Assembly: GCA_903825245.1 (NCBI GenBank)
Contig: CAIJZX010000012.1
Location: 76,059-140,058 of the forward strand
Length of the DNA stretch: 64,000 nucleotides
Source: Candidatus Kerfeldbacteria bacterium
Lineage (GTDB): Bacteria > Patescibacteriota > Patescibacteriia > SBBC01 > CAIJZX01
Direction: 5' to 3'
Shown here: one piece after another, positions 20,587 to 64,000 of the stretch
Layout: every line of letters starts with the position of its first letter
How positions within the stretch are numbered: the first letter of the stretch is position 1
The notes under the pieces: model-generated
What the model saw: only the letters and a program-made list of their open reading frames with translations
What the model was told of the DNA's origin: nothing
Database searches by the model: none
Program-made: the position numbers and the translations under genes

Positions 20587-20661
20587 GGGTTCCTAGCTCA
20601 ATGGTAGAGCAACGGCCTTTTAAGCCGTGGGTTCTGGGTTCGAGTCCCAGGGGACCCACCA
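20587..20661 (+). tRNA. tRNA-Lys (anticodon UUU), CCA encoded
   Basis: The 7-bp acceptor stem is gggttcc/gggaccc, the D-arm gctc-aatggta-gagc, the anticodon stem acggc/gccgt with loop cTTTTaa, and the T-arm ctggg-ttcgagt-cccag. Confidence 0.85.
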
Positions 20662-22418
20662 GCCAACAATTTGCGCCCCGAACTCATCCCGGCGATATGC
20701 CCAAGGATGTCTTGGGGCAACTTCAATTTAATACGTATTTCATAGGGTAAAAGTTGTTTTTCCTTACGTCGTCCGGCAATGCTGTCTTCCGCAGTGGAAG
20801 GACGGGAATATATAATGATCTCCTCGATCAGGGCATGAAGAAGCTGGTCGAGCTCCCGGCGGTCGCCAAAAATATCATTAAGTGCCTCCGAGTACTTTTT
20901 ATTGAACACATTAAGGCTAGAAATGTAGCTATCTGGCATTGCGTTTTTTGAAATGAGTAGGTCTAGCTTTTCCAATTCAGCTGTTAGTAGCACAATCTGC
21001 TTCTCCAACTTCTCCATTTCCTCTTTAAGCTTCGGCTGTTTGATATAACCAAGCTTATGCTGTTCCAAGATATTGTTTTTCCTCGCTGGCATTGCATCAA
21101 GCAACTGTCGCAACTGCTCTCTTTTCTTGGCGAAGTGTTTCTTTTCCGATTGTGTAGATTTTAGTTTTTGTTGGTACTTGAATACAGCCTCTGGGTTTTG
21201 TAAAAACTCTTTTGTCTTAGTAACTACATATCGTTCTATTTCTTCGGCTGGCAATGGAATTGTAAAACAATTTATTTCGTATTTGCTCGTATTTTTTCGA
21301 GCACACTTGTAGTAATAGGCAAAATTATCAGGCGCTGTTGTAAGCTTCTTTCGTTCCCCAATCCACCGATACATTGTAGGATCAGCGTCCGGCTTGAAAC
21401 ATGCATCACATTTAAGTAATCCTCTTAATAAATATATGTGTCCTTCTCGGGGCTCATCAATGATGTTTTTTGTCTGGGCAAGTATGTTTTGGGCTTTTTC
21501 AAAAGTCCCTACATCAATGATCTGTGGCAATGCATAGGGTGAAATACTCCACTTAGAAGGTTCTACCCGCTTACCGTCTCTTGTTTTACCAAAGTAGTAT
21601 TTACCAATGTATATGGGGTCTTTTAATATCTCTCTTACAATTTCCATTCGCCAAAAGTTCGGCGAACTCTTCTTTCTTATTGCCCCTTTATATTCTTTAT
21701 ACAAGACTGATGATGTTTCAGGTGAAGGCCGCTCCTCCTCCGTGAGTATCTTCGCGATCCGCTGTGCGGAAAGTTTTTGTGAAACGCACATGTCGAAAAT
21801 TGATCTGATAACTTCGGCTTCGGCTTCGAAGATGACCAACCTCTTTTCACTGTCTTTAATGAAGCCGTATTTCATGCCCGATCCCATGACAACTCCGTTC
21901 TTAATCGCTTGTTCCCGTCCGGCTTGTGTTCTTTGCTTGATCGTCTCAACTTCTAATTCAGCGATGACACCAATGATGTTCAAAATCGCCTTTCCAAAAG
22001 GTGTAGACGTGTCTATGCTCTCTGTTGCCGACAAGAATTGAACGTCGTATTCACCGAAAAAGTCGATAACTTCTAAGAGGATTTTTAATCGACGTGCGAA
22101 ACGATCAATTTTGTATACCGCAACTGCGTCGAAAGGCCTGTCTTCGGGTGTAGAGTTTGTGAGATCCTCTTGAAGTTTCGCAAAAGCAGGTCTCTCTGGA
22201 AGATCAACGGTACCGCTAATCCCTTCATCAAAATAAATATACTGATCCCCAGCGAGAACCATTGCATCAAGCCCATTATCGAGTTTTCCTCGGGCTTTTA
22301 TCAAGCCTAGTAACGCTTCTTGTTGGAGCTTTTTTCCGTACCTCTCAACCTGCTCATCAGTCGAAACCCGCAGGTAGAGAGCGACGCGGAGAGACGATTG
22401 TTGTTGGTTTCCGATCAT
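20598..22418 (-). CDS. large serine recombinase (integrase)
   Basis: The N-terminal resolvase catalytic domain (LRVALYLRVSTDEQ) is followed by a recombinase domain, a CxxC zinc ribbon and a coiled coil. The last roughly 64 nt of the ORF overlap the tRNA on the opposite strand. Confidence 0.85.
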   Translation of the reverse strand: MIGNQQQSSLRVALYLRVSTDEQVERYGKKLQQEALLGLIKARGKLDNGLDAMVLAGDQYIYFDEGISGTVDLPERPAFAKLQEDLTNSTPEDRPFDAVAVYKIDRFARRLKILLEVIDFFGEYDVQFLSATESIDTSTPFGKAILNIIGVIAELEVETIKQRTQAGREQAIKNGVVMGSGMKYGFIKDSEKRLVIFEAEAEVIRSIFDMCVSQKLSAQRIAKILTEEERPSPETSSVLYKEYKGAIRKKSSPNFWRMEIVREILKDPIYIGKYYFGKTRDGKRVEPSKWSISPYALPQIIDVGTFEKAQNILAQTKNIIDEPREGHIYLLRGLLKCDACFKPDADPTMYRWIGERKKLTTAPDNFAYYYKCARKNTSKYEINCFTIPLPAEEIERYVVTKTKEFLQNPEAVFKYQQKLKSTQSEKKHFAKKREQLRQLLDAMPARKNNILEQHKLGYIKQPKLKEEMEKLEKQIVLLTAELEKLDLLISKNAMPDSYISSLNVFNKKYSEALNDIFGDRRELDQLLHALIEEIIIYSRPSTAEDSIAGRRKEKQLLPYEIRIKLKLPQDILGHIAGMSSGRKLLAGGSPGTRTQNPRLKRPLLYH

Positions 22419-22743
22419 AGGACAAGAGAGGTAACTAGCCCAGAACTATGCAAACATGATTATCATACTCGTTTTATTGCTATAAAGCCATAATTGCTAA
22501 CCCGAGGTAATTAAACTATAATTCAATCTGTTTCCGAGGCCTAGATGCTCATTTCTACAATTTACTTAGCCTAAACTTCGGCCTATGGCCGGGGCACGGC
22601 GATCAAACCAAGAGAGGCGAACAGCTCCTAGTCAGAGCACCTCTCTTGGTCGTGCGTGGAAACGCGCACGGGTGGCCGTAAGGTCATCGCTGGCTAGGGG
22701 CTTTGTGTTTGTACAAACCCGCCGCCAGATATTTACAAAATAT

Positions 22744-52713: not shown

Positions 52714-53064
52714 CTACGACTTAATCTCGATGTCCACGCCCGCCGGAAGATTCAGGTTCGTCAGGGCATCCACCGTTTTCGGCGTCGGATCGATGATATC
52801 GACCAGGCGCTTGTGCGTCCGCATTTCGTACTGCTCTCGCGAATTCTTGTGAGCGAAAGCCGAACGAATCACCGTGTACTGACTCCGTTCCGTCGGCAAC
52901 GGCACCGGACCTTTGATTTTTGCGCCGGTACGAATCGCCGTATCAATGATCGTCTTGGTCGACTGATCGATGATCTTGTGATCGTAAGCGCGAATCTTGA
53001 TCCGAAGTCGTTGGTGGACTTCTTCGTCGGGAGTAGCGGTGAGAGGAACGTGTGGTTCAGGCAT
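52714..53064 (-). CDS. rpsJ: 30S ribosomal protein S10
   Basis: [15 protein letters not shown] matches S10. Confidence 0.9.
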
Positions 53065-53091: not shown

Positions 53092-54276
53092 TTACTTGAT
53101 GATCTTCGTTACCACGCCGGCGCCGACTGTGTGGCCACCTTCGCGAATGGCGAAGCGTTGCTGTTCTTCAAGTGCGACTGGAGTGATGAGCTTGATGACG
53201 AATTTCATCTGGTCCCCAGGCATTACCATTTCGGTACCAGCCGGTAATTCGATTTCGCCAGTCACGTCCGTGGTGCGAATGTAGAATTGCGGTTTGTAGC
53301 CTTTGAAGAACGGTGTATGTCGTCCACCTTCTTCTTTGGAGAGGACGATGACCTCAGCTTCAAACTCGCTGTGCGGGGTAACTGTACCTGGCTTAGCTAG
53401 CACTTGACCGCGTTCGACATCTTCTTTCTTCGTACCGCGGAGGAGTAAACCAGCATTATCGCCAGCCACACCAGAATCCAATTGCTTGTTGAACATTTCG
53501 ATACCAGTCACGACGGACTTGGCGGTCGGTTTCAGACCGACGATTTCCACTTCGTCATTAATCTTGATTTCACCGCGTTCGATACGACCCGTAACAACGG
53601 TACCGCGACCTTCAATCGAGAAGATATCTTCAATTGGCATCAAGAACGGTTTATCGGTCGCGCGCTTCGGTTCCGGAATGTATTCATCGAGCGTCTTCAT
53701 GAGCTCCATGATTTTTTCCTGGTAGGCCGGATCGCCTTCCAAAGCCTTCAATGCTGAACCGCGGATGATCGGGGTGGTATCGCCTGGGAAATCATACTTC
53801 TTTAACAAATCGCGGATTTCGACTTCGACGAGGTCAATCAATTCAGCATCATCAACCGTATCGCACTTGTTCAAGAAGACGACGATGTATGGTACACCGA
53901 CCTGCTTGGCCAAGAGAATGTGTTCGCGGGTCTGCGGCATCGGACCGTCAGCGGCCGAAACAACGAGAATTGCACCGTCCATTTGGGCAGCACCGGTAAT
54001 CATGTTCTTGACGTAGTCGGCGTGTCCTGGACAGTCGACGTGTGCGTAGTGACGATTCGCTGTTTCATACTCAACGTGGGCCGTAGCAATCGTAATACCG
54101 CGAGCCTTTTCTTCCGGTGCGTTATCGATATCATCAACGCCTTTCGTTTGCGCGATGAATCCCTTATCGGCTAATGTCTTGAGAATAGCGGCCGTTAATG
54201 TGGTCTTACCATGGTCGACGTGACCGATAGTACCAACGTTGACGTGCGGCTTACTGCGATCAAATTTTTCTGCCAT
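53092..54276 (-). CDS. tuf: elongation factor Tu
   Basis: [27 protein letters not shown] matches EF-Tu. The start at 54276 is internal to the ORF-track extension. Confidence 0.95.
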
Positions 54277-54325
54277 AGACTCGTTTGCGCTAGTTAGAAG
54301 AAAAAGGTTACAGAAATGCCTGGCG

Positions 54326-54354
54326 ATTATAGCAGGGCTTGATAAACTTGGCAA
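54326..54354 (-). promoter_or_regulatory. sigma70-like promoter for tuf
   Basis: On the minus strand TTGCCA is separated by 17 nt from TATAAT, about 50 nt upstream of the tuf ATG. Confidence 0.45.
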
Positions 54355-54611
54355 GTGTCTACCCTTCAACCACAAGATCTAAACGAGGAAATTTTCAATT
54401 TTGGCTAATGTTAGCCTTTTTTTAATTTTTCCTGAGTTTTTTCCAAAAAATACACTCCATTTTCCGTTATACGCCTATATTTTAGCTAAAATTAGCCATT
54501 TTTTTATCCACAGGCTGTGGACTAACTTTTATTGAACTAACCATCAAAAATTGACTAATTCCATAAAAAGCCTAGTGTTCATGGGCGCTGATCTTTGACA
54601 ATGGAGGTTCG

Positions 54612-54989
54612 ATGCATCAACTGACGCCAAAGGACGCATCTGTACTTGCGATCGTGGTTGAGAACCCGAAGATGTCCGAGCGGCAATATCAAAGGCTGCT
54701 CACCCACGTCACTGACCCGGAACTACGGGAGCTCATCGGTGCTATTCGGGACAAGGATCTCGAAAAGCCTTTGACCGATCGTACGTGGCAATTTATCCCT
54801 GTTATACAAGATATTGAGGCTTGGCGTACCGCCAACGAAGGTCGACGCGGTCCAAACAACCGAACGCAGGAGGACGCAATGTATGGATTGGTAGGTGCAC
54901 TGATACTTCTTGGCGTCGGGTGGGGCGGTTTTAAACTGCTGACGTGGTCACTCGACAGACGTATTCGTCGGGTCAAGAAGCGGGTATAG
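54612..54989 (+). CDS. hypothetical protein with a C-terminal TM anchor (GC-rich small-protein operon, gene 1)
   Basis: GGAGGT lies 5 nt upstream of the ATG. The protein is 125 aa. Confidence 0.35.
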   Translation: MHQLTPKDASVLAIVVENPKMSERQYQRLLTHVTDPELRELIGAIRDKDLEKPLTDRTWQFIPVIQDIEAWRTANEGRRGPNNRTQEDAMYGLVGALILLGVGWGGFKLLTWSLDRRIRRVKKRV

Positions 54990-55175
54990 GAGAATCGTGA
55001 TGAGCACGAGAAGGTCTCTGAGAAGGTACCGTTCACTCGCGCCACGGAGATTACGGCGAGCTACTAGTAAAGCAGAGCTGGAAAGAATGATGCTCAAGCA
55101 CTTTCCATGGATGTCGATGATATCGAAGTCGACCCCCAACAAGAGCCAGTAGCTCAAGGGAGACGAGGAAACGCT

Positions 55176-55421
55176 ATGAACAAGCGCTCAGCTATCCCGA
55201 CTCCGCACGGACTTCGGCTGAAACGCGGCAAGAACGGAATCTTCACTGCACCCGATCCCGGTCCGGAAGCTCAACGTGAGGCAGTGAAACGAGCTTTTCC
55301 TGACACGAATGTGGATCCGCCTGAATCCAACGACAACACGATCATCTGCGATGAGTGCGGATGGCGTGTCGAGAAGGAACGAACCTGCTCGAACTGCGGC
55401 AAGACTATGTCGTGTCCATAG
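55176..55421 (+). CDS. small zinc-ribbon protein
   Basis: The likely start is the internal Met MNKRS. The C-terminus has CDECG....CSNCG. Confidence 0.35.
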   Translation: MNKRSAIPTPHGLRLKRGKNGIFTAPDPGPEAQREAVKRAFPDTNVDPPESNDNTIICDECGWRVEKERTCSNCGKTMSCP

Positions 55422-55430
55422 GAGGAAGCT

Positions 55431-55631
55431 GTGAGAACCTTCATCAGGCTGTTACCTGTGTTCAGCCTGTTCGTGATCATTTGCGGCCTGGTATTCGCCT
55501 TCACATATCCGGAAAGACTAAATTTTGGACGAATCGTCGCTTGGGCGTTTCTCAGCTATTTCCCGATCTCAGAAACTGTCTCCAAGTGGAGCGATCGTTT
55601 CATAACAAAGTCCGGATCGGCGAACTTGTGA
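55431..55631 (+). CDS. small membrane protein (66 aa, two TM helices)
   Basis: The protein is hydrophobic. Confidence 0.3.
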   Translation: MRTFIRLLPVFSLFVIICGLVFAFTYPERLNFGRIVAWAFLSYFPISETVSKWSDRFITKSGSANL

Positions 55632-55671
55632 CCACCGCCAGTAGCAGTTTGTGCCCTCAAGAGGAGGCTCC

Positions 55672-55827
55672 ATGCCGAAAGCAGGCGTAGTAGTATCCGA
55701 GCAGATGGTGGCAAGAATGTTCTGCGGCGGAATCATTGGCGCACTGGTTGCGTCATTCCTGGGTCCCGAAGCCATCTTCGTGGGCGCGATCTTCGGTGCC
55801 GCGGCAGGTTTCGCAGTCACTCCGTGA
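55672..55827 (+). CDS. small membrane protein (51 aa, Gly-zipper-like)
   Basis: AGAGGAGG lies 6 nt upstream of the ATG. The ORF is not in the track because it is under 60 aa. It translates as MPKAGVVVSEQMVARMFCGGIIGALVASFLGPEAIFVGAIFGAAAGFAVTP. Confidence 0.3.
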   Translation: MPKAGVVVSEQMVARMFCGGIIGALVASFLGPEAIFVGAIFGAAAGFAVTP

Positions 55828-55850
55828 TCAACTCAGAAGTCGTGGGAGGT

Positions 55851-55976
55851 ATGATGGAATTCCTCGCTGCAGTTGCTACCGTCTGTCTCTTGACCGCAGT
55901 CATGACGCTCGGGATACTGCGCTATGGCCACATCGCCTTCCAGGTCATGGGTCGTATCATGGGTATCGCGAAGTAG
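55851..55976 (+). CDS. small membrane protein (41 aa)
   Basis: GGGAGGT lies upstream of an ATGATG start. It translates as MMEFLAAVATVCLLTAVMTLGILRYGHIAFQVMGRIMGIAK. Confidence 0.3.
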   Translation: MMEFLAAVATVCLLTAVMTLGILRYGHIAFQVMGRIMGIAK

Positions 55977-56030
55977 TCTGAACTACAACGTTACACACAA
56001 ACGTACAACCACCCCGCTAGCACATCGCTC

Positions 56031-56058
56031 GCGGTTTTTTTATGTAAGAAAAAACCGC
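56031..56058. terminator. bidirectional rho-independent terminator between convergent operons
   Basis: GCGGTTTTTT-tatgtaag-AAAAAACCGC has A/T tracts on both sides. Confidence 0.5.
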
Positions 56059-56092
56059 ATATCACCAGGACATACGGTTCGGTACAAAGAGC

Positions 56093-57115
56093 TTAGCTGA
56101 GCTGAGCGAGAAGCCCCTGAATCAGCGGAACGTCGCTGTCATTACCCAGACGACGATCGATAGCCAAAGACTGCTGGTACAACGCCCGGGCTTGTTGAGT
56201 CTCTCCTCCGCGAGCGTGGAGCGCTTCGGCGCGGCGGAAACATGACAAGGACTGGAGTGCGAGGTACGCTTGATTACTCGACGATTCCCCTAGCAATTCT
56301 TCGACAATGGAAAGCGATTTTTCGAAAGCGTCATCCGCCTCGTCAAATCGGTTCATCATCCGCAACAGCAAACCCATTTCTTCGTAGGCGGTGGCGATAT
56401 TCTGCCGGTGTTTATTCGTCACCATTCGAAACGATCCGCCAAAACTATTGATGTACAGTTTGCCGCCCATACTCTTGACGGTCATCATTTTGCCGCAAAA
56501 CGGACATCCACCCATTCCGCCGGAACCGGGATCGACCGGCACTTCTCCAGACATCCCGCAGTTAGGACAACCAATCCGCGCAGTACCGCGATACGAAACA
56601 TTGACCTCATCAAGATCAATGATTTTGGTACGCGTGCTGGTAGTTGTGCCTTTTTCCTGAGCATCAATGGACCGTTTGAACATGCGCAGAGCTTGCTGCG
56701 CCGCCGGAAAATTTTCCAACACCTGTGCATCACTACCCATCCGAACACCAGGCCGGTAATGTCGAGCGGTCCAGAATGTGGTTCTGAGGATGGCGCGGTT
56801 GTAGTCATACAAACCCGCCGCCAACACCACGTGACGGAAGAAATACATCCACACGATAGGCGGCCCGAAGAGAATCGCGCTGGTCACCCACAAATGCTGA
56901 TTGTTCAGGTAGTGGAATTCCAGGTGAAACTGCTTTTGCAGTAGACCGGCCGCCAACAACGTCAGCATGCCAACCATACTTGCTCCGACTGCCCGAGGGT
57001 TCAGTGGCCGCTGCAGACCCATTTCCCACAGTCCGTATCGCGCCCATTCGGTGGTCAAGACGCAGTTACAGACCAGTAAAATCGCCAACACGGCATATTC
57101 CACGCTCATAGTCAT
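56093..57115 (-). CDS. membrane protein with a CxxC...CxxC zinc ribbon and C-terminal TPR-like repeats
   Basis: Four N-terminal TM helices are followed by CPNCG...CPFCG and then helical TPR-like repeats. Confidence 0.45.
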   Translation of the reverse strand: MTMSVEYAVLAILLVCNCVLTTEWARYGLWEMGLQRPLNPRAVGASMVGMLTLLAAGLLQKQFHLEFHYLNNQHLWVTSAILFGPPIVWMYFFRHVVLAAGLYDYNRAILRTTFWTARHYRPGVRMGSDAQVLENFPAAQQALRMFKRSIDAQEKGTTTSTRTKIIDLDEVNVSYRGTARIGCPNCGMSGEVPVDPGSGGMGGCPFCGKMMTVKSMGGKLYINSFGGSFRMVTNKHRQNIATAYEEMGLLLRMMNRFDEADDAFEKSLSIVEELLGESSSNQAYLALQSLSCFRRAEALHARGGETQQARALYQQSLAIDRRLGNDSDVPLIQGLLAQLS

Positions 57116-57118
57116 CCC

Positions 57119-57607
57119 CTATTCCCTAATGGCTTCAACAAACGAGAACATCCGGCTCATCGCAAAATTCGCGAAGAACATGATAAGGGTGACGCCCACC
57201 GTGATAAAAATCCGACCGATTGACGTCTCGGAAAGAAAGTGTCCTTGCGTCGCATACGCGGTGATCGTGCACACGATCCAACACAATCCGCCGACACTCA
57301 TCGAGAAGTGGCCACGCGGAAAGGTAGCGTCGTTATTCAAACCGACAAACAACCCAATAGCCAATCCGGGAATCGTGCCGTACCGAAGCGTCTGCTGCCA
57401 GATAAACGCCTGAACACCATCAGGCAACATCAACTCCGGCGACGTAATCGGTCCGCAGATGAGGAATTTTGCCGGAAGCAGGTAGTACAAAGAACCGAGC
57501 AAGACACCGAGGATGGCACCAGTCAGAACTGAAAGGCCGAGATTGTATCGCATACACCCTCCATTGATATGGATAGGCTCCGGGACTTGGAACAAATTGT
57601 CAAACAA
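57119..57607 (-). CDS. polytopic membrane protein
   Basis: The 162 aa protein has four TM helices. Confidence 0.4.
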   Translation of the reverse strand: MFDNLFQVPEPIHINGGCMRYNLGLSVLTGAILGVLLGSLYYLLPAKFLICGPITSPELMLPDGVQAFIWQQTLRYGTIPGLAIGLFVGLNNDATFPRGHFSMSVGGLCWIVCTITAYATQGHFLSETSIGRIFITVGVTLIMFFANFAMSRMFSFVEAIRE

Positions 57608-57727
57608 CCGTACTGAATTGCGCCGTATCCTAGCCGTTTTTTCTATACGATGTCAAGTTGCGAACGACGCACCAGCCACAAGAAAAAAACACCCAATTGA
57701 GTGTCACCTATCATAGTTACTTGTTTA

Positions 57728-58348
57728 CTATCTGATTGTCGGCTGTGTTGCCTCGTCGAGGTGTGTTGAGTCGTTGATAATATGGGCGACGTGGGAGTCA
57801 TCATCGCGCATTTGGACAATCGTTACGCCGGTGTTGACGGTCCGAATTGGCGGATCTTTCTCGTAGTCTTGTTTCAGCAAATACACCAGCAGGGCACGAA
57901 TAAATCCCATGTGTGAGACGACCAGCACGGTTTTTCCCGCATATTCTTTCCGAAACTGTTGAATGAAGTGCGCAGCCCGGTCTCGCGTTTCCAACATTGA
58001 TTCACCATTGACCGGGCGATACTCATACCATTTCACGCCGCTTTTTTCGGCTGCGGCCATAAATTCTTCCCGCGGCTTGCCTTCCATCTCGCCCATGTGG
58101 CGTTCGCGAAGATCTTCGCTGATATGTAAGGCAATCCCCGGATGAAATTGCAAAATCCCCTGCGCCGTATCGCGCGCCCGCTCAGCGTCGCTCGTAAACG
58201 CGGCATCAATGTGTTCGTTTTTTAGCCGGTCAGCCACGCGCTCAACTTGTGCTTTTCCTTTTTCCGTCAGACGCGATGGACCGTGCGCGACCATCAGCGG
58301 TCCGACGTTATGTTCCGCTTCAGCGTGACGTACAATGATGAGTTTCAT
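57728..58348 (-). CDS. histidine phosphatase (phosphoglycerate-mutase-like) family protein, paralog 2
   Basis: MKLIIVRHAEAEHN and a later VVSHMGF second-His motif are present. Confidence 0.65.
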   Translation of the reverse strand: MKLIIVRHAEAEHNVGPLMVAHGPSRLTEKGKAQVERVADRLKNEHIDAAFTSDAERARDTAQGILQFHPGIALHISEDLRERHMGEMEGKPREEFMAAAEKSGVKWYEYRPVNGESMLETRDRAAHFIQQFRKEYAGKTVLVVSHMGFIRALLVYLLKQDYEKDPPIRTVNTGVTIVQMRDDDSHVAHIINDSTHLDEATQPTIR

Positions 58349-58449
58349 CCCGTTAGAGGTGATTGAAATAAGAACTATCTGAATTGTTTCTGGTAGAAAC
58401 TTGAAATGCGACTTTCGGAATTTGCATAGTATTGGTCACCTCTAACGGG
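58349..58449 (-). promoter_or_regulatory. 14-bp perfect inverted repeat filling the intergenic space between the two phosphatase paralogs
   Basis: CCCGTTAGAGGTGA lies at 58349-58362 and TCACCTCTAACGGG at 58436-58449, with a 73-nt loop. The distal arm on the mRNA abuts the downstream start codon. Confidence 0.4.
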
Positions 58450-58458
58450 ATTTCATGA

Positions 58459-59085
58459 TTACGCGTTTTCTCCTTCTTCGTTAACATGTGTAAGATGACT
58501 AACGTCATTTATTAACATTGGCTTAGCCGGTCCTTGTATTGGAATGTCGAGTATCGTTACAGCCGTATTGTGATGATGGTATTCTTCTTTTTCCACATCA
58601 GCACCTTCTTCGAGCGCCCATTCCATCAATGTTGAAAGAAAGAGTCCATGGCTAACAACTACCACCGTGCGTTTTGCATCGCGAACACGATGGTCCTCAT
58701 ACCATCGCCGCGCACGTTCTTTCACCTCGCGCATTGACTCGCCACCCTCCGGTTTCCAATCGCGAAAATGTTGCCCGGATTTTATGAACGCTTCTTTTTT
58801 TGCTACTACCGGCTGGTGGGTAAAAACACCCGAATCCCGTTCACGAAGTTCAACTTCTTGTGCCTGTTTTGCTTCCGGATGATGTTCAGCGATGAGCGAT
58901 GCCGTCTGTTGGGCGCGAATCATATCGCTCGAATAGATGATATCGATTTGTTCATCAGCCAAACGCCGAGCCACAGCCGCCGCTTGACTTAGACCTACCT
59001 TATTCAATGCCATATCACTCGATCCAGCTAGTGTTTCAGATACGTTTCGATCGGTTTCGCCGTGACGGACGATAATGAGTTTCAT
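58459..59085 (-). CDS. histidine phosphatase (phosphoglycerate-mutase-like) family protein, paralog 1
   Basis: MKLIIVRHGETDRN and VVSHGLF motifs are present. Confidence 0.7.
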   Translation of the reverse strand: MKLIIVRHGETDRNVSETLAGSSDMALNKVGLSQAAAVARRLADEQIDIIYSSDMIRAQQTASLIAEHHPEAKQAQEVELRERDSGVFTHQPVVAKKEAFIKSGQHFRDWKPEGGESMREVKERARRWYEDHRVRDAKRTVVVVSHGLFLSTLMEWALEEGADVEKEEYHHHNTAVTILDIPIQGPAKPMLINDVSHLTHVNEEGENA

Positions 59086-59597
59086 GGTTGCAGAATTTGC
59101 TCCCAGCCACCGTTTGGTGCCGTGCGCACAAATACAGACAGTTCTTCGATGTTACAGCTACCTTCTACGGTTTGAGATTGAACTGCGTCCCAAACCGATT
59201 GGAAAACATTATCCGGAATGTTGTTGGCAACGGTAACATGATACACAGAATCTCTTCCTCCCCGGTATTGACCGCTATCAAGGTGCTCAAGTTCCGGAAA
59301 TTTTTGGCGCAACTCCTTGGAAACACTTCTTAGCTCTTCTTGTCCTGGGTCAAGCCAAAGGACACTATGCTCGAGATGATGAAATGATTGCCATCCCTGA
59401 AAGGTAATATTCAGGGTGTAGCGGGTTGTGAAGATATGTTTTTTGATCGCTCCAGGTAAAGCACGAAATGGCGGAATAATCGTGATATGCGACGGCAATG
59501 TACTCTTCGTCCAACGATCGTATTTTTTTCGCAGCTGAACAAGTTGCGTTTGAAACGGCTCGGGTAAAACAGCGATAATGACATACTCGTAACCCAT
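59082..59597 (-). CDS. 2H phosphoesterase superfamily protein (LigT-like 2'-5' RNA ligase / cyclic phosphodiesterase)
   Basis: Two H-x-T-x motifs (SHITIIPP about residue 36 and YHVTVANN about residue 127) sit at typical spacing in a 171 aa protein. The 4-nt overlap with the downstream phosphatase gene indicates an operon. Confidence 0.6.
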   Translation of the reverse strand: MGYEYVIIAVLPEPFQTQLVQLRKKYDRWTKSTLPSHITIIPPFRALPGAIKKHIFTTRYTLNITFQGWQSFHHLEHSVLWLDPGQEELRSVSKELRQKFPELEHLDSGQYRGGRDSVYHVTVANNIPDNVFQSVWDAVQSQTVEGSCNIEELSVFVRTAPNGGWEQILQP

Positions 59598-59630
59598 ACA
59601 TGCAGTATATCACTTATTACCTTACATTTC

Positions 59631-59653
59631 TTAATGGGACTGAGTCCCAATAA
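59631..59653. promoter_or_regulatory. 23-bp near-perfect palindrome upstream of the ligT-like operon
   Basis: TTAATGGGACTGAGTCCCAATAA lies about 35 nt upstream of the ligT-like start on the minus strand. Confidence 0.35.
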
Positions 59654-59696
59654 GGAAATAACAACAACACCGCGGGTTTCCTCCCACCACCCAAAA

Positions 59697-59717
59697 GCCC
59701 TCCTCAGGCAGGAGGGC
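59697..59717 (-). terminator. rho-independent terminator downstream of fusA
   Basis: GCCCTCCT-caggc-AGGAGGGC is followed on the minus strand by TTTTGGGTGG. Confidence 0.5.
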
Positions 59718-59743
59718 TAGTCGCGTTGTGAAGAATGGTATTG

Positions 59744-61822
59744 TTAGGCCTTCGCTTTATCCCCCACAATCGCTTCCGCCACGTTGCGCGGAACTTCTTG
59801 GTAGTGCGAGAATTCCATTGAGTATGATGCGCGGCCTTGGGTCATGGAACGAATTGCTGTTGCATACCCGAACATTTCGCCGAGCGGCACGTGAGCATCA
59901 ATAACTTTCGCCTGGCCGCGGTTGGACATTTCGTTAATGACCGCGCGCTTCGCGTTCAAGTCGCCGATAACGTCGCCCATATTCGCTTCCGGCGTAATGA
60001 CTTCTACTTTCATGATTGGTTCAAGCAATACCGGTTTGGCTTTGCGGCAGGCCTCTTTGAAGCCCATCGAACCGGCGATTTTGAAAGCCGCTTCAGACGA
60101 GTCAACGTCGTGCGATGAACCATCGAAGACTGTCGCCTTTACGTCGACCATCGGATAACCGGCGACCACGCCGTTGTCCATAGATTCTTTAACGCCTTTT
60201 TGAATTGGTTGGATGAATTCTTTCGGAATTGAGCCACCTTTTACTTCGTCGATAAATTCGAAACCTTTGCCTTTTTCATTCGGTTCAACGCGGATCCAAC
60301 AATGGCCATACTGACCGCGTCCGCCGGACTGCTTGATGTATTTACCTTCACCTTCTGCCATTTGGGTAATTGTTTCACGATAGGCAACGCGTGGCCGGCC
60401 AACATTGGCTTCAACTTTAAATTCACGCTTCATACGATCAACAATGATGTCGAGGTGGAGTTCACCCATACCGGAAATAATCGTCTGGCCGGTTTCTTCA
60501 TCACCGTGCACGCGGAAGGTCGGATCTTCTTCCGCCAATCGCGAGAGGGCCATGCCCATCTTTTCTTGGTCTTGTTTCGTCTTCGGTTCGATCGCGATGT
60601 CGATCACCGGTTCCGGGAAGACAATGTTTTCGAGTTTCAACGGATGATCCGGATCGCACAGCGTATCACCGGTAACCGTTCCCTTCAAACCGATAGCGGC
60701 GGCAATTTCACCGGAGAAAACTTCGTCCACATCTTCACGTGAGTTGGCATGGAGTCGAACGATACGGCCAATGCGTTCTTTATTGCCAGTGGTCGTGTTC
60801 AAGACATACGAACCTGCGGCTAAATGGCCGGAGTAGACGCGGAAGAACGCCAACTTACCAACGAACGGATCAGTAGCGATTTTAAACGCGAGGGCAGTGA
60901 AAGGCGCGTCATCGCTGGCCGGACATTCAATTTCGGCGTCCGTTTTCGGATCAGTACCGACGAGTGCTTTCACGTCAAGCGGCGACGGCAGGTAATCATT
61001 GACGGCATCGAGAAGGAATTGCACGCCTTTGTTCTTCAAAGCTGAACCGCAAAGCACCGGCACTAAGGTGTTGGAGATGACCGCTTTGCGCAAGGCGGCT
61101 TTCATTTCGGCAATTGAGGGTTCTTTACCGCCGAGATACATTTCTAAAAGTTTATCATCCGTTTCACAAACCGCTTCCACGAGACGGTGGCGATATTCTT
61201 CCACCTTGTCTTTCATGTCTGCAGGAACATCGGTCTGTTCAAACTCTTTACCCATTTCATCTTTGTAGATTTCGGCTTTGCGCTCGAAGAGATCGATAAT
61301 ACCAGTGAAGGTTTCGGCGGCGCCGATTGGCAGTTGTACCGGATAAGCGCTCGTCGTTAAGCGTTCATGAATCGACTTGATGTCAAAATAAAAGTCGGCG
61401 CCCATACGATCCATCTTGTTGATGAAACAAATACGCGGGACATGGTACTTTTCCGCTTGATGCCACACTGTTTCCGATTGCGGTTCTACGCCGGCTACAC
61501 CGTCGAAGACAACCACGCCGCCATCGAGCACGCGGAGAGAACGCTGCACTTCGACCGTAAAGTCAATGTGTCCCGGGGTATCAATAATATTGATACGATG
61601 GTCTTTCCAGAAACAGGTCGTGGCGGCGGCGGTAATCGTAATACCGCGTTCTTTTTCCTGTTCCATCCAGTCCATTTCGGCCGCACCCTCGTGCACTTCG
61701 CCGATTTTGTGCTTCTTGCCAGTATAGAAAAGAATGCGCTCCGAGACGGTGGTTTTTCCCGCGTCAATGTGAGCGATGATTCCGATGTTACGGGTTTGTT
61801 CGAGAGAGTATTCACGTGCCAT
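59744..61822 (-). CDS. fusA: elongation factor G
   Basis: The N-terminus is [16 protein letters not shown]. The protein is 692 aa. Confidence 0.95.
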
Positions 61823-61833
61823 ACAATATGTCC

Positions 61834-62649
61834 TTACTGTTTAACGAAATCAATCAATTGTTGAAGAGAAAAGTTTGTCGATTTTTGTCCGGTCGTCGGA
61901 TCGACGTTAGCGGTCAGAATTTTCTTGCTTTGATGTAAATACCATGTCCCCGGTTCGAGCGCATTCAGTTTTGCGTAGAGCTCCGTTAAATCGACATCGC
62001 TAGCGGCCGGAGCGCGGAAATCACCGAACGGCTTCGTCGGGTCGGTTTGGACGCGAAGGAGAAAATTGTGGTGGTAGGCGATCGCATCGGAACCTCGGAA
62101 ACTGCTATGGACACCGACCGCTTTACCCCATTTCGTATCGAATTCAATCCGCTGATCCCAATCTTTCAAAAATTTTGCGCGTTCATTGAGCTGAGCAACT
62201 ACGGCAGCCACGATATCAATACCCTTCTTCATCAAAATCTGGTCATCTTGTTCTATCATCCAAATCCCGCGCAGAATTGCCGGAATGGAAAAACTCGTGT
62301 AATTCGGATCGGTAATTTCCCATTGCCCAGTATCTTCTTTATGGGCGTAATCAACGAGCCATTCAATCGCCTTATCTTCATACTGGTCGTTCGGAATCAA
62401 CCCGCGATGCATCAAGTCTTGATAGACGAGCTGATTGCACGAGTGGCCGACTTTGAGTCCGTGTTCATCAAATTTTCCACGACCGACACCGATCGCTAAA
62501 TAGTTATCCCCGGTCGGAACATTGTGGCCATCAGTCGTATAGCCAACAAATTCAAATGTCGCGTCTTTCAGCGAGGGATCGAACGTGGTGAGTAGCCAGG
62601 CAGCTACAACTTCGTCGAGGTGTGGCTTTTTGTGGGTGACAATAATCAT
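61834..62649 (-). CDS. hypothetical protein, possibly a MYG1/UPF0160-like metal-dependent hydrolase (tentative)
   Basis: The N-terminal [19 protein letters not shown] resembles the MYG1 THxxxxHxDExxAxxLL pattern. A FDEHG motif follows. The 4-nt overlap with the upstream gene supports the start at 62649. Confidence 0.35.
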
Positions 62650-63350
62650 GATTGTTCTTTGTGCTGTTCGCGCCAATCAGAAGTGGCTTTCAACATGCTT
62701 GTATGTTCATCGTTAAGTTTATCTTGGGCTTTCTTTAAACATCGTGCTACAGCTTGTAATGTATATGAATCAAAATTGCGGAGCTTCACATCATCCTTTA
62801 ATACCGCAGAAACCTGTTCCATAGGAATTTTTCCTAACAATGTGCCAACATCTTGATAGGTCGTTTCAAAGATGTTTTTTGATTTGGTAACGATCTTTCG
62901 CATCGAATCCGGAACCGTGGTAACAGCAATATCCGCCATCATGGCAAGAATGTCTTGATAAAAGCCCGGAACGGATTCTGCATATTGCGGAATTTCGCGG
63001 CGTGCCTGTTCCTGGTCGTTCAACTCATGTGATTCAACATGATCGTTGATATGCCGCAGAGCCGTATCACTGGTTACCACTTGGGTGGCGACATACGGGT
63101 GCTCGGCTTGGAGACGTTTTTGAATATCGGCAATCGTATCCGGATCCGGATGTTCTTTCTTTTGCTCAACGGATAATTCGTCAATTAACACATCAACAAC
63201 ACTTAGCGGATCGCCTTCGATCTGCTCGGCGTGCTTCGCCATAATTTTTCCGGCAGCTTGAACTGCGGACTCATGATCGATGTCCGTGCGAAAATGGTTC
63301 TCACGCTCTGCGGAGAACTCGTCGAATCGGCCGGTGTCAGGATCGGACAT
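62646..63350 (-). CDS. acidic hypothetical protein embedded in the str operon
   Basis: The 234 aa protein is translationally coupled to both neighbours. No domain was recognised. Confidence 0.4.
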   Translation of the reverse strand: MSDPDTGRFDEFSAERENHFRTDIDHESAVQAAGKIMAKHAEQIEGDPLSVVDVLIDELSVEQKKEHPDPDTIADIQKRLQAEHPYVATQVVTSDTALRHINDHVESHELNDQEQARREIPQYAESVPGFYQDILAMMADIAVTTVPDSMRKIVTKSKNIFETTYQDVGTLLGKIPMEQVSAVLKDDVKLRNFDSYTLQAVARCLKKAQDKLNDEHTSMLKATSDWREQHKEQS

Positions 63351-63353
63351 AGT

Positions 63354-63842
63354 CTATGCTCCTTCCTCTCGCAAATGTACGGCCAGTCGCTCCTTGAGCG
63401 CAAGTACCTGACTATGCAATTGTAATAATCTAAATATGGTCACTTGAGGGTCAATCTTGCTAGCCGTTTCAGGATTCATTATTTCTCTAAAACGCTTGAT
63501 ATCTTCTTGTAAATCTTCACCGTATGCCAGCCACATATCTTCAAGTGTACTGCCGGGTTTTGGCCAATGATCTTTCATGAATCTAAATATCTCCTCATAA
63601 TTTTTCGGAATCGCTTTAATTGCTTCATTCCATTCAGGGAGTTCCTTTTCAAGTCGATGTAACTTCATTTGGTTCCGATCAGCACCAAGTACTTGTTGCT
63701 CGTTTAATGCACTTTCAAGCTCTCGAATAACATTTCCCGGTAAAAAAACATTACGATCAGCCTGTTCAGACTTCGGTGTAATTCCTTCAGCTGTCCGATA
63801 CTCTTCCGGCGATAATCGACCGCCCGGTTCCTGTTCGCCCAT
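63354..63842 (-). CDS. hypothetical protein embedded in the str operon
   Basis: The 162 aa gene starts 5 nt after the rpsG stop. Confidence 0.4.
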   Translation of the reverse strand: MGEQEPGGRLSPEEYRTAEGITPKSEQADRNVFLPGNVIRELESALNEQQVLGADRNQMKLHRLEKELPEWNEAIKAIPKNYEEIFRFMKDHWPKPGSTLEDMWLAYGEDLQEDIKRFREIMNPETASKIDPQVTIFRLLQLHSQVLALKERLAVHLREEGA

Positions 63843-63847
63843 ACGCG

Positions 63848-64000
63848 TTACGCGAAGTGAGCAAACGCGCGGTTCGCTTCAGCCATACGGTGGACGTCAA
63901 GCTTCTTCTTCATAGCATCACCTTGTCCGGTTGAAGCCAGAACCAACTCTTCGGCCAACTTGATGGCCATCGGACGACCTTTCTTCGATCGAGCAGCATT
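63848..64000 (-). CDS. rpsG: 30S ribosomal protein S7 (C-terminal part; 5' end beyond the window)
   Basis: The minus-strand frame reads ...[43 protein letters not shown], which matches the S7 C-terminus. Confidence 0.8.

Follow-up and report, generated by a model that had tools for sequence, protein, structure and literature searches.

Between the normally adjacent elongation factor genes fusA and tuf of a Patescibacteria/Kerfeldbacteria-like member of the tiny uncultured bacteria, we found a compact operon encoding a YjcG-like 2H phosphoesterase and two branch-1 histidine phosphatases (HP1 and HP2). We propose, with evenly balanced confidence, that it is a lineage-conserved cassette inside the str operon, with one or two phosphatases depending on the genome, that removes cyclic phosphates in two steps. 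Its features are collected in Table 1, in which positions refer to the window, the whole 64,000-nucleotide stretch of DNA analysed.

Table 1 Features of the fusA–tuf spacer and its flanks
Feature	Position	Strand	Evidence
tuf (EF-Tu, 394 aa)	53092..54276	-	ORF and translation
tuf promoter-like site, TTGCCA-17-TATAAT with upstream TG	54326..54354	-	consensus scan, 11/12
Run of small ORFs (125, 104, 66, 58 and 50 aa)	54612..55976	+	ORF list, hydropathy
Terminator-like hairpin 3' of TPR gene, 12-bp stem then T run	56052..56080	-	
TPR340: 340 aa, N-terminal hydrophobic segments, CPNC...CPFC Zn-ribbon-like, TPR	56093..57115	-	TPR_12 at 1.9e-9
mem162: 162-aa hydrophobic protein (144 aa by gene callers)	57119..57607	-	no family match
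Promoter-like site before membrane-protein gene, TTGACA-18-TAGGAT	57627..57656	-	10/12 matches
Intrinsic-terminator-like hairpin and U7, end of 2H-HP1-HP2 unit	57688..57705	-	canonical
HP2, branch-1 histidine phosphatase, 206 aa; RHA and R, E, H catalytic residues	57728..58348	-	PF00300 at 7e-47
16-bp perfect inverted repeat (I3) around HP1-HP2 spacer	58347..58451	-	-34.3 kcal/mol, z = -5.35
HP1, branch-1 histidine phosphatase, 208 aa; RHG, R57, E82, H146	58459..59085	-	PF00300 at 2e-43
YjcG-like 2H phosphoesterase, 171 aa; H37xT39 and H120xT122	59082..59597	-	PF13563 at 3e-17
TGATATACT, extended -10-like element ending 6 nt before 2H start codon	59604..59612	-	read from sequence
Terminator-like hairpin and UUUU, 3' of fusA	59696..59718	-	
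fusA (EF-G, 692 aa)	59744..61822	-	ORF, Pfam domains
DHH/DHHA1-fold phosphoesterase, 271 aa, 11 nt upstream of fusA	61834..62649	-	model pLDDT 93.1
rpsG (S7) 3' end, truncated by window edge	63854..63997	-	tblastn with E. coli S7

A split str operon

The spacer between fusA and tuf, both on the minus strand, spans 5,467 bp (54277-59743), bearing out the distance of about 5.4 kb and the split str operon described in an earlier sequence-only reading of this DNA. The same reading had given fusA its own terminator and tuf a strong promoter of its own, and both signals were recovered. The fusA hairpin has a 9-bp GC-rich stem followed by UUUU and then GGG (region z = -3.5), and was missed by the consensus scan because its U tract comprises only four U; the tuf promoter-like site had the top consensus-scan score in the region. 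The identity of tuf to that of relatives L003, L009 and L024 is 92-93%.

The 2H gene opens the intervening operon and overlaps HP1 by 4 nt, as previously claimed. The extended -10-like element lies so near the 2H start codon that the mRNA is possibly leaderless. The cassette has promoter-like and terminator-like signals of its own, so it may not be co-regulated with fusA and tuf, a point against the proposed reading. The HP2 start codon has its first two bases paired by the 3' arm of inverted repeat I3.

A YjcG-like 2H phosphoesterase

Its motifs and predicted fold (model pLDDT 93.9) mark the 171-aa protein as a genuine member of the 2H phosphoesterases. Its two HxT motifs (H37-I-T39 and H120-V-T122) are invariant in a 28-sequence family alignment, and the top structural match of the model is Bacillus subtilis YjcG (2d4g, TM 0.75), to which the family profile also aligns over its full length (4e-18). 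Next in the fold ranking comes the Arabidopsis Appr>p cyclic phosphodiesterase. Members of the family are scarce: about 33 of 1.84 billion are genuine representatives.

The protein shares with YjcG its size, the placement of the HxT motifs within PPHxT...F and HVTV contexts, and the lack of the ThpR-type HxTxxF and HxTxxR extensions (PMC4201822). It differs in genomic context and sequence, with an identity of only 19% and, on NCBIfam PRK13679, a score of 25.6 bits where the cut-off is 129; the activity of YjcG itself has been called indeterminate (PMC4201822). Thus the earlier assignment as a LigT-like 2H phosphoesterase stands for the fold and both HxT motifs and fails for the subgroup. Escherichia coli ThpR/LigT, an RNA 2',3'-cyclic phosphodiesterase, has the same fold and catalytic HxT pair, but its TM to the 2H model is only 0.52-0.57 and its motifs are HxTxxF and HxTxxR rather than HITIIP and HVTVAN. 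We rejected a ThpR/LigT-like identity on the absence of these extended motifs and of a TIGR02258 match.

Two divergent histidine phosphatases

The two phosphatases were correctly read from the sequence as paralogous PGAM-type enzymes with RHG or RHA and SH motifs. They are old paralogues, 34% identical, and both retain all catalytic residues. Each has counterparts beside 2H genes elsewhere, HP1 in L003, L009 and L027 (45-62% identity) and HP2 in L023 (46-47%). Among eight phosphatases from this context, R7-H8 occurs in all full-length sequences and R57, E82 and H146 are invariant.

Their nearest solved relatives, PspA, PhoE and TIGAR, are phosphatases of metabolism or of broad specificity, which counts against the proposed cassette function. 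PhoE of Geobacillus stearothermophilus (1h2e, the nearest solved structure to HP2) and PspA of Hydrogenobacter (4ij5) are the closest at full length and share the catalytic residues and the short form of about 205 aa. In contrast to both, the phosphatases described here have their own genomic context and their own C-terminal (L/I/V)N(D/E)xS(H/Y)L motif. They score 70-77 bits against a cut-off of 350 for the PspA equivalog of NCBIfam, and lie far under the cut-offs for all three of PspA, CobC and dPGM.

Conservation of the 2H gene and its pairing

Six other species-level relatives have contigs spanning the spacer (L003, L009-12, L013, L021/22, L024 and L027), and each carries a 2H gene there, so the split seen in the window, with its 2H gene, is conserved. 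EF-G of these relatives is 88-90% identical, while 2H identity drops to 24-50%. Adjacency of 2H and phosphatase genes recurs in the window and, among relatives and short contigs, in L003, L009, L020, L023 and L027. The pair occurs in both gene orders, and 4-nt overlaps are found in two arrangements, 2H/HP1 in the window and HPb/2H in L009. In L027, an AAA_33 P-loop kinase gene (only generic AAA_33/AAA_18 matches) overlaps the phosphatase gene by 4 nt, placing kinase, phosphatase and 2H genes in a row, and the L009 spacer adds a Nudix hydrolase.

Two observations count against the cassette reading. No phosphatase lies between fusA and tuf in L013, L021/22 and L024, which keep the 2H gene, and distant members of the 2H family (L004-L008 and L014-L019) are not near a phosphatase, fusA or tuf. 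Other spacer cargo includes a GNAT gene, a DUF5678 gene beside an aspartyl protease gene, a methyltransferase and unknowns.

Neighbouring genes

The gene upstream of fusA, previously called MYG1-like, proved to have the two-domain DHH/DHHA1 fold common to MYG1 (UPF0160), NrnA and RecJ, and Foldseek paired its model with NrN, NrnA, RecJ and family II pyrophosphatase (probability 0.8-0.99). The name MYG1-like is good for the superfamily only: Pfam gave no match to the MYG1 family (UPF0160) and only a marginal ChrB_C hit, and hhalign to human MYG1 (an approximate sequence) gave E = 0.003 at 10% probability. The N-terminal TH-x3-H-x-DE and DEH motifs nevertheless align with those of MYG1, a 3'-5' RNA exonuclease (PMC6582341). 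H6, H10, D12, E62, H63, D106 and H239 are invariant in the DHH protein, and D61 is present in at least 90% of sequences. The gene also lies upstream of fusA in L003, L009, L021, L026 and L027; L013 has a tblastn match there, with an additional 294-aa ORF called between.

On the tuf side, the membrane and TM/Zn-ribbon/TPR genes reported earlier are present with the features described, although they do not belong to the module. They form a separate unit, because 2H-HP1-HP2 ends at its own terminator and mem162-TPR340 has its own promoter- and terminator-like sites. Hydrophobic segments are all that mem162 offers, with no Pfam match; TPR340 has nine full-length homologues (38-58% identity), one of them named Patescibacteria. 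Within the plus-strand run of small ORFs, across which the AT skew flips sign, the 125-aa product has a C-terminal TM segment, the 104-aa product a Zn-ribbon-like CxxC...CxxC pattern with weak Zn-ribbon matches, and the 66-, 58- and 50-aa products are hydrophobic. These small ORFs, too, are transcribed separately from the cassette. None of the genes on this side occurs in the fusA-tuf spacers of relatives; we read them as variable cargo, unrelated to the cassette, in the same permissive spacer.

Composition gave no grounds for the suggested horizontal acquisition of 54.6-57.7 kb. Its GC of 0.528 ranks 4 of 244, the window as a whole having 0.484, and equals that of the adjoining ribosomal-protein genes (0.53-0.54), and GC3 of its genes is at most about 1.5 sd from that of the window's genes.

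Proposed function and alternatives

Known systems offer partial parallels. In animal UBASH3/Sts/TULA proteins, a YjcG-like 2H domain is fused to a histidine phosphatase domain (PMC10218301, PMC10253181), and the substrates cut by the Sts-1 2H domain include 2',3'-cyclic nucleotides and an RNA 5-mer bearing a cyclic phosphate (PMC10218301, PMC10253181). The pairing is the same as in the cassette, but the cassette consists of separate genes, the animal proteins add UBA and SH3 domains, and their phosphatase domain acts on phosphotyrosine. As no Sts phosphatase structure is among the PDB matches of HP1 and HP2 at E <= 1e-5, the resemblance is at superfamily level and is not evidence of common descent of the pairing. 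T4 and Clostridium Pnkp and fungal and plant Trl1 (5' kinase with 3' phosphatase or 2H CPDase) likewise turn 2',3'-cyclic phosphate ends into usable ends, and the gene row in L027 recalls them. Unlike theirs, the cassette phosphatases are of the histidine phosphatase superfamily and not of DxDxT or calcineurin type; a kinase is missing from the window, and a linked ligase from every locus.

The cassette enzymes fit the salvage of RNase-derived 2',3'-cyclic NMPs as well as they fit RNA-end healing. The 2H enzyme would open these nucleotides, as the Sts-1 2H domain does in converting 2',3'-cNMP to 3'-NMP (PMC10218301), and the phosphatases, similar to broad-specificity PhoE-type enzymes, would yield nucleosides for re-phosphorylation, for example by the L027 kinase, whose matches are compatible with nucleoside or nucleotide kinases. 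The host probably lacks de novo nucleotide synthesis, and the L009 Nudix hydrolase and the nanoRNase-like DHH protein would suit nucleotide recycling. We nonetheless consider salvage unlikely overall: it makes the str position incidental, leaving unexplained why so deep a divergence has not moved the 2H gene from its place between fusA and tuf, and the cassette has neither a transporter nor a nucleoside phosphorylase linked to it.

That the spacer does no more than tolerate insertions, with 2H and phosphatase as independent housekeeping enzymes (the latter, for instance, a phosphoserine or sugar-phosphate phosphatase), seems to us improbable. Its highly variable cargo (GNAT, DUF5678, Nudix, methyltransferase, membrane/TPR and unknowns), the three spacers devoid of a phosphatase and the position of PspA as closest to the phosphatase profile would suit this explanation; adjacency that recurs in six genomes or contigs although their gene order is shuffled, the overlaps in two distinct arrangements and the low PspA, CobC and dPGM scores argue against it. 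Action on NAD/ADP-ribose-derived cyclic phosphates (for example, ADP-ribose 1'',2''-cyclic phosphate), or on proteins, for instance dephosphorylation of EF-Tu or EF-G by the phosphatases, is very improbable: the Appr>p fold match, the Nudix gene of the L009 cassette and the existence of protein phosphatases such as Sts-1 among histidine phosphatases (PMC10218301) are outweighed by the absence of linked Tpt1/KptA, macro domain or ADP-ribosyltransferase genes, the restriction of the Nudix gene to one relative and the lack of anything specific to protein substrates.

The sequence-only reading is thus partly supported, and neither contrary outcome that it named, a missing 2H fold or phosphatases grouping with metabolic mutases and cobC-type enzymes in an unconserved arrangement, was found. 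Its RNA-end-healing idea is plausible for the two-step cassette, and is strengthened by the conserved adjacency, the translational coupling and the AAA_33 kinase in one relative; that no RNA ligase, RtcB or Tpt1 is encoded among the scanned window ORFs counts against it. What we observe are the folds and catalytic residues, the operon structure, the conserved place between fusA and tuf and the recurring 2H-phosphatase adjacency; substrates, reaction order and any tie to the upstream DHH phosphoesterase or to translation are inferred. The 2H enzyme would open the 2',3'-cyclic phosphodiester of an RNA 3' end, or of a mononucleotide or small oligonucleotide, giving a phosphomonoester at the 2' or 3' position, which the PhoE/PspA-like phosphatases would strip via a phospho-histidine intermediate. 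HP1 and HP2 may each take one isomer (2'-P or 3'-P), or one may act on polymer and the other on monomer substrates. The outcome would be a 2',3'-diol end, usable for exonucleases, the CCA-adding enzyme or aminoacylation.

Gene organization of the fusA–tuf spacer

The sequence-only reading had described a split str operon with an RNA-end processing module between fusA and tuf; we confirmed the observation, and its interpretation is partly supported. The two genes lie 5,467 bp apart, exactly the interval proposed, and the signals assigned to them were recovered, with fusA followed closely by a GC-rich hairpin (9-bp stem, then UUUU; 59696-59718) and tuf preceded by a near-consensus extended promoter. 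Our signal scan added elements absent from that reading: a canonical terminator directly after the second histidine phosphatase gene, and promoter-like and terminator-like sequences that bracket the genes for a hydrophobic protein (mem162) and a TM/Zn-ribbon/TPR protein (TPR340). The spacer therefore consists of three units, namely 2H-HP1-HP2 (a 2H phosphoesterase and two paralogous histidine phosphatases), mem162-TPR340 and a convergent set of plus-strand small ORFs. No known RNA family was detected in the spacer using Rfam.

Coordinates of genes, signals and other features in the window.
Feature	Coordinates	Strand	Remark
rpsG fragment	63854-63997	-	cut by window edge
Acidic protein without assignment	63354-63842	-	
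Acidic protein without assignment	62646-63350	-	
DHH-fold protein, 271 aa (predicted)	61834-62649	-	11 nt upstream of fusA
fusA	59744-61822	-	
fusA–tuf gap	54277-59743		
-10-like element	59597-59612		
2H phosphoesterase, 171 aa	59082-59597	-	
HP1	58459-59085	-	
Inverted repeat	58347-58362 / 58436-58451	-	arms, in mRNA
HP2	57728-58348	-	
Terminator	57705-57688		7-bp stem and U7
Promoter-like signal	57656-57627		
mem162, hydrophobic protein, 162 aa	57119-57607	-	
TPR340, TM/Zn-ribbon/TPR protein, 340 aa	56093-57115	-	
Terminator-like signal	56080-56052		
Five small ORFs	54612-55976	+	
tuf	53092-54276	-	
rpsJ	52714-53064	-	then rplC, rplD, rplW, rplB, named from translations
ORF at rplW (L23) position, 164 aa	50809-51303		
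LOOT RNA (RF03000)	22568-22688	+	79 bits
Large serine recombinase	20598-22418	-	
tRNA-Lys	20587-20661	+	

A rare YjcG-like 2H phosphoesterase

The 171-residue protein belongs to the 2H phosphoesterase superfamily. Both H-x-T/S-x motifs of the superfamily are present (H37-I-T39-I and H120-V-T122-V), and H37, T39, H120 and T122 are the sole invariant residues in an alignment of 28 family members. The protein scores 63.4 bits against Pfam 2_5_RNA_ligase2 (PF13563; cut-off 27; 3e-17), and its AlphaFold model (pLDDT 93.9) has the pseudo-twofold alpha/beta 2H fold, with every top Foldseek match being a 2H enzyme. Bacillus subtilis YjcG is its best structural neighbour (TM 0.75), with the Arabidopsis Appr>p cyclic phosphodiesterase second and ThpR/LigT after it, and YjcG is also the first match of the family profile (4e-18). 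Against the YjcG equivalog model (NCBIfam PRK13679) it scores 25.6 bits, below the cut-off of 129, and it is a relative of YjcG, not a YjcG equivalog. There was no match to TIGR02258 (ThpR/LigT) at E ≤ 0.01, and where ThpR/LigT carries HxTxxF and HxTxxR (PMC4201822) this protein reads HITIIP and HVTVAN. YjcG likewise lacks these extended motifs (PMC4201822), so the protein is YjcG-like, and the label LigT-like that had been suggested does not hold in its strict sense.

When 1.84 billion cluster representatives were scanned exhaustively with HMMER, only 36 family matches reached E ≤ 1e-3, three of which (the long matches P0024, P0032 and P0039) are repeat or low-complexity artefacts and not fusions; the subfamily is therefore rare. 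This full scan supplied the homologues, a word-indexed search having returned nothing beyond the protein itself and exact look-ups of it no contig. A phage origin was rejected on tblastn searches of 50,697 phage records, which gave no match to the 2H protein or TPR340. The neighbour-joining tree of 2H proteins is star-like, with the fusA–tuf members not set apart from the others, so we draw no conclusion on a single origin. The 2H gene has no Shine-Dalgarno sequence, and only 6 nt separate its ATG from the end of an upstream extended -10-like element, TGATATACT, pointing to a leaderless transcript.

Two histidine phosphatases

HP1 and HP2 match PF00300 (2e-43 and 7e-47, respectively); R7-H8 is found in all full-length HP sequences, R57, E82 and H146 do not vary among eight HPs, and the nucleophile motif of HP2 is RHA. 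Both are accordingly branch-1 members of the histidine phosphatase superfamily with the full catalytic set kept. At 34% identity they are paralogues of long standing, too divergent for a recent tandem duplication. The nearest solved relatives are PhoE, PspA and TIGAR, which are short broad-specificity phosphatases. At the equivalog level, we rejected identity with dPGM (43.5 and 53.4 bits; TIGR01258 cut-off 81.7), with the CobC alpha-ribazole phosphatase (86.5 and 104.6 bits; TIGR03162 cut-off 162.9) and with the PspA metal-independent phosphoserine phosphatase (70.4 and 76.9 bits; NF045917 cut-off 350), and scores were also far below the curated cut-offs for GpmB and SixA. The dPGM matches span only the first ~100 residues and do not extend to a full-length alignment with the insert and tail of dPGM. 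Among solved structures, PspA comes closest to the HP profile despite its sub-cut-off equivalog score.

The 73-nt HP1–HP2 spacer is flanked by the arms of a perfect 16-bp inverted repeat, and the 3′ arm takes the HP2 start codon into the pairing at its first two bases. The resulting structure (-34.3 kcal/mol, z = -5.35) may gate translation of HP2 or serve as an RNase III-type processing site.

Conservation of the arrangement in relatives

Loci of relatives (L003–L028) were fetched via the 2H family, using a 10-sequence alignment for the locus search, and via the DHH protein encoded upstream of fusA. In the tabulated relatives, EF-G is 88–90% and EF-Tu 91–93% identical to the window proteins. 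The arrangement noted between fusA and tuf proved to be conserved, which is the principal new finding: 2H lies between these genes not only in the window but also in each of the six relatives with contigs across the spacer, and this position is kept though 2H identity drops to 24–50%. An HP gene abuts 2H in six of nine informative contexts; 2H comes first in the window, and HP comes first elsewhere. Two different arrangements have start and stop codons that overlap by 4 nt, namely 2H/HP1 of the window and HPb/2H of L009. Conservation is strongest for the HP1 type, the L027 HP being 62% identical to HP1 and the L027 DHH protein just 43% to its counterpart; an HP2-type counterpart (46–47% identity) adjoins 2H in L023.

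Gene order at the fusA–tuf junction in the window and its relatives.
Locus	Gene order
Window	fusA, 2H-HP1-HP2, membrane-TPR, small ORFs, tuf
L003	fusA, DUF5678, Asp-protease, GNAT, HP, 2H, tuf
L009-L012	fusA, (membrane protein, opposite strand), Nudix, HP, HP, 2H, tuf
L013	fusA, 198-aa protein without assignment, 2H, tuf
L021/L022	fusA, 128-aa protein without assignment, 2H, tuf
L024	fusA, 2H, 147-aa protein without assignment, 2H, tuf
L027	fusA, GNAT, 130-aa protein without assignment, AAA_33 kinase, HP, 2H, (methyltransferase, opposite strand), 167-aa protein without assignment, tuf
L020, L023 (short contigs)	HP, 2H

Distant 2H members (L004–L008, L014–L019) lie beside genes for glycosyltransferase-like membrane proteins or beside RarA and UvrD, with no HP, fusA or tuf nearby, and the distant DHH homologue of L028 is likewise not near fusA; the arrangement therefore defines one lineage.

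Several relatives show local peculiarities. L024 (1974-3563) has two divergent 2H paralogues flanking the 147-residue protein and no HP. An Acetyltransf_3-type GNAT follows fusA in two relatives (L027, 13170-15932; L003, 6492-6983), and in the same L027 segment the AAA_33 P-loop kinase gene shares 4 nt with the HP gene, so that kinase, HP and 2H stand in a row. The DUF5678 (67 aa) and retropepsin-like aspartyl protease (140 aa) genes of L003 (5745-6358) overlap by 13 nt and are part of the variable spacer cargo.

The mem162, TPR340 and plus-strand small ORFs have no counterpart in any relative's spacer; TPR340 has nine full-length homologues (38–58% identity), one of them named Patescibacteria. 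This block had been thought horizontally acquired on account of its GC content, a proposal that the composition does not bear out. Its GC of 0.528 (window, 0.484; rank 4 of 244 among 3.1-kb windows) equals that of the neighbouring ribosomal-protein genes, and its GC3 values (0.61 and 0.64) are within ~1.5 s.d. of window genes (0.522 ± 0.078), so composition is no evidence for horizontal transfer. The comparative data show only that the spacer collects variable cargo.

The DHH gene and other features of the window

The 271-residue protein encoded upstream of fusA had been called MYG1-like. This held at the superfamily level and failed at the family level, as there was no match to MYG1/UPF0160 (PF03690) at E ≤ 0.1 and only a marginal match to ChrB_C (1e-5). 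Its model (pLDDT 93.1), predicted with homologues from the DHH protein search as input, matches NrN, NrnA, RecJ and family II pyrophosphatase in Foldseek (probability 0.8–0.99); global TM scores are low (0.23–0.33), as is to be expected when two domains are mobile. The sequence has conserved TH-x3-H-x-DE and DEH motifs, with H6, H10, D12, E62, H63 and D106 invariant and D61 nearly so. The model thus places the protein in the DHH phosphoesterase superfamily, with a predicted DHH and DHHA1 two-domain fold and the metal-binding His and Asp residues kept. The gene is directly upstream of fusA in L003, L009, L021, L026 and L027, and its match in L013 is upstream of fusA with an extra 294-residue ORF called in between; two homologues carry the source name Candidatus Kerfeldbacteria. 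The rpsG and fusA genes are also apart in the window (61834-63997), where acidic proteins of 162 and 234 residues without assignment and the DHH gene intervene. The order is rpsG, variable protein, DHH, fusA in L003, L021 and L026, and rpsG, DHH, fusA in L027.

Elsewhere in the window, the ORF at the rplW position, assigned by gene order and translation only, has a Lys/Ala-rich low-complexity N-terminal extension estimated at ~65 residues, and S10 has a short N-terminal extension common to relatives. The LOOT RNA adjoins the large serine recombinase gene, which overlaps the 3′ part of tRNA-Lys; the segment 20587-22688 looks like the edge of an integrated element.

Possible function and significance

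Branch-1 histidine phosphatases remove phosphomonoesters, and the most likely mechanism here is that the 2H enzyme and the HPs act in series, which would take a cyclic phosphate to a hydroxyl. 2H enzymes open 2′,3′-cyclic phosphodiesters to 2′- or 3′-monoesters (PMC4201822, PMC10218301), yielding the 2′-phosphate for ThpR (PMC4201822) and the 3′-nucleotide for the phosphodiesterase (PDE) domain of Sts-1 (PMC10218301), and the ThpR authors proposed the same scheme, with the CPDase acting with ‘an RNA phosphomonoesterase’ (PMC4201822). The basis for this mechanism here is the intact catalytic residues of 2H and the HPs, the co-orientation, adjacency and occasional translational coupling of their genes, and their fixed place in the str operon. 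A nucleic-acid or nucleotide theme is indicated by the AAA_33 kinase coupled to HP in L027, by the DHH phosphoesterase preceding fusA and by the animal UBASH3/Sts proteins, in which a YjcG-like 2H domain and a histidine phosphatase domain are fused (PMC10218301, PMC10253181) and whose phosphodiesterase substrate is still unknown (PMC10218301). This physical linkage appears here as adjacent but separate genes in six genomes or contigs, with a 4-nt overlap in two.

The 2H substrate could be either polymeric RNA ends or 2′,3′-cyclic mononucleotides. It seems to us unlikely, though worth stating, that the str operon holds a dedicated RNA 3′-end maintenance pathway, made up of a DHH exonuclease upstream of fusA and, between fusA and tuf, a YjcG-like CPDase and HPs (and in some relatives a 5′ kinase). 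Expressed together with EF-G and EF-Tu, it would clear cyclic-phosphate or phosphate blocks from tRNA, rRNA or mRNA fragments, with the 2H-HP pair as a prokaryotic counterpart of the UBASH3/Sts pair. As to a complete RNA repair system, no 5′-OH kinase was found in the window, the AAA_33 kinase occurring in L027 only, and no RNA ligase (Rnl or RtcB) in the spacer, the relatives' spacers or the window ORFs scanned. Since the same evidence does not tell RNA ends from cyclic mononucleotides, we give substantial weight to salvage, in which 2H and HP would act on 2′,3′-cyclic mononucleotides. Lower weight goes to the 2H and HP genes being functionally unlinked passengers, and to ADP-ribose-cyclic-phosphate or protein substrates.

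The enzyme superfamilies and the proposed chemistry are known. What is new is a rare YjcG-like subfamily fixed inside the fusA–tuf junction of one Patescibacteria lineage, the repeated association of this subfamily with a histidine phosphatase clade of its own, and the likeness of this gene pair to the UBASH3 domain pair. We did not find the pairing described in the literature searched, and we know of no earlier contextual clue for YjcG-like proteins such as this recurrent, sometimes translationally coupled pairing offers. If the RNA 3′-end maintenance reading is true, YjcG-like enzymes and the Sts PDE domain would gain a testable substrate class. Few bacterial gene orders are as well conserved as that of the rpsL-rpsG-fusA-tuf operon, and it is unusual for a lineage to maintain phosphoesterase genes stably within it, a hint that clearing of cyclic-phosphate ends or nucleotide recycling may be tied to translation in these reduced-genome organisms.
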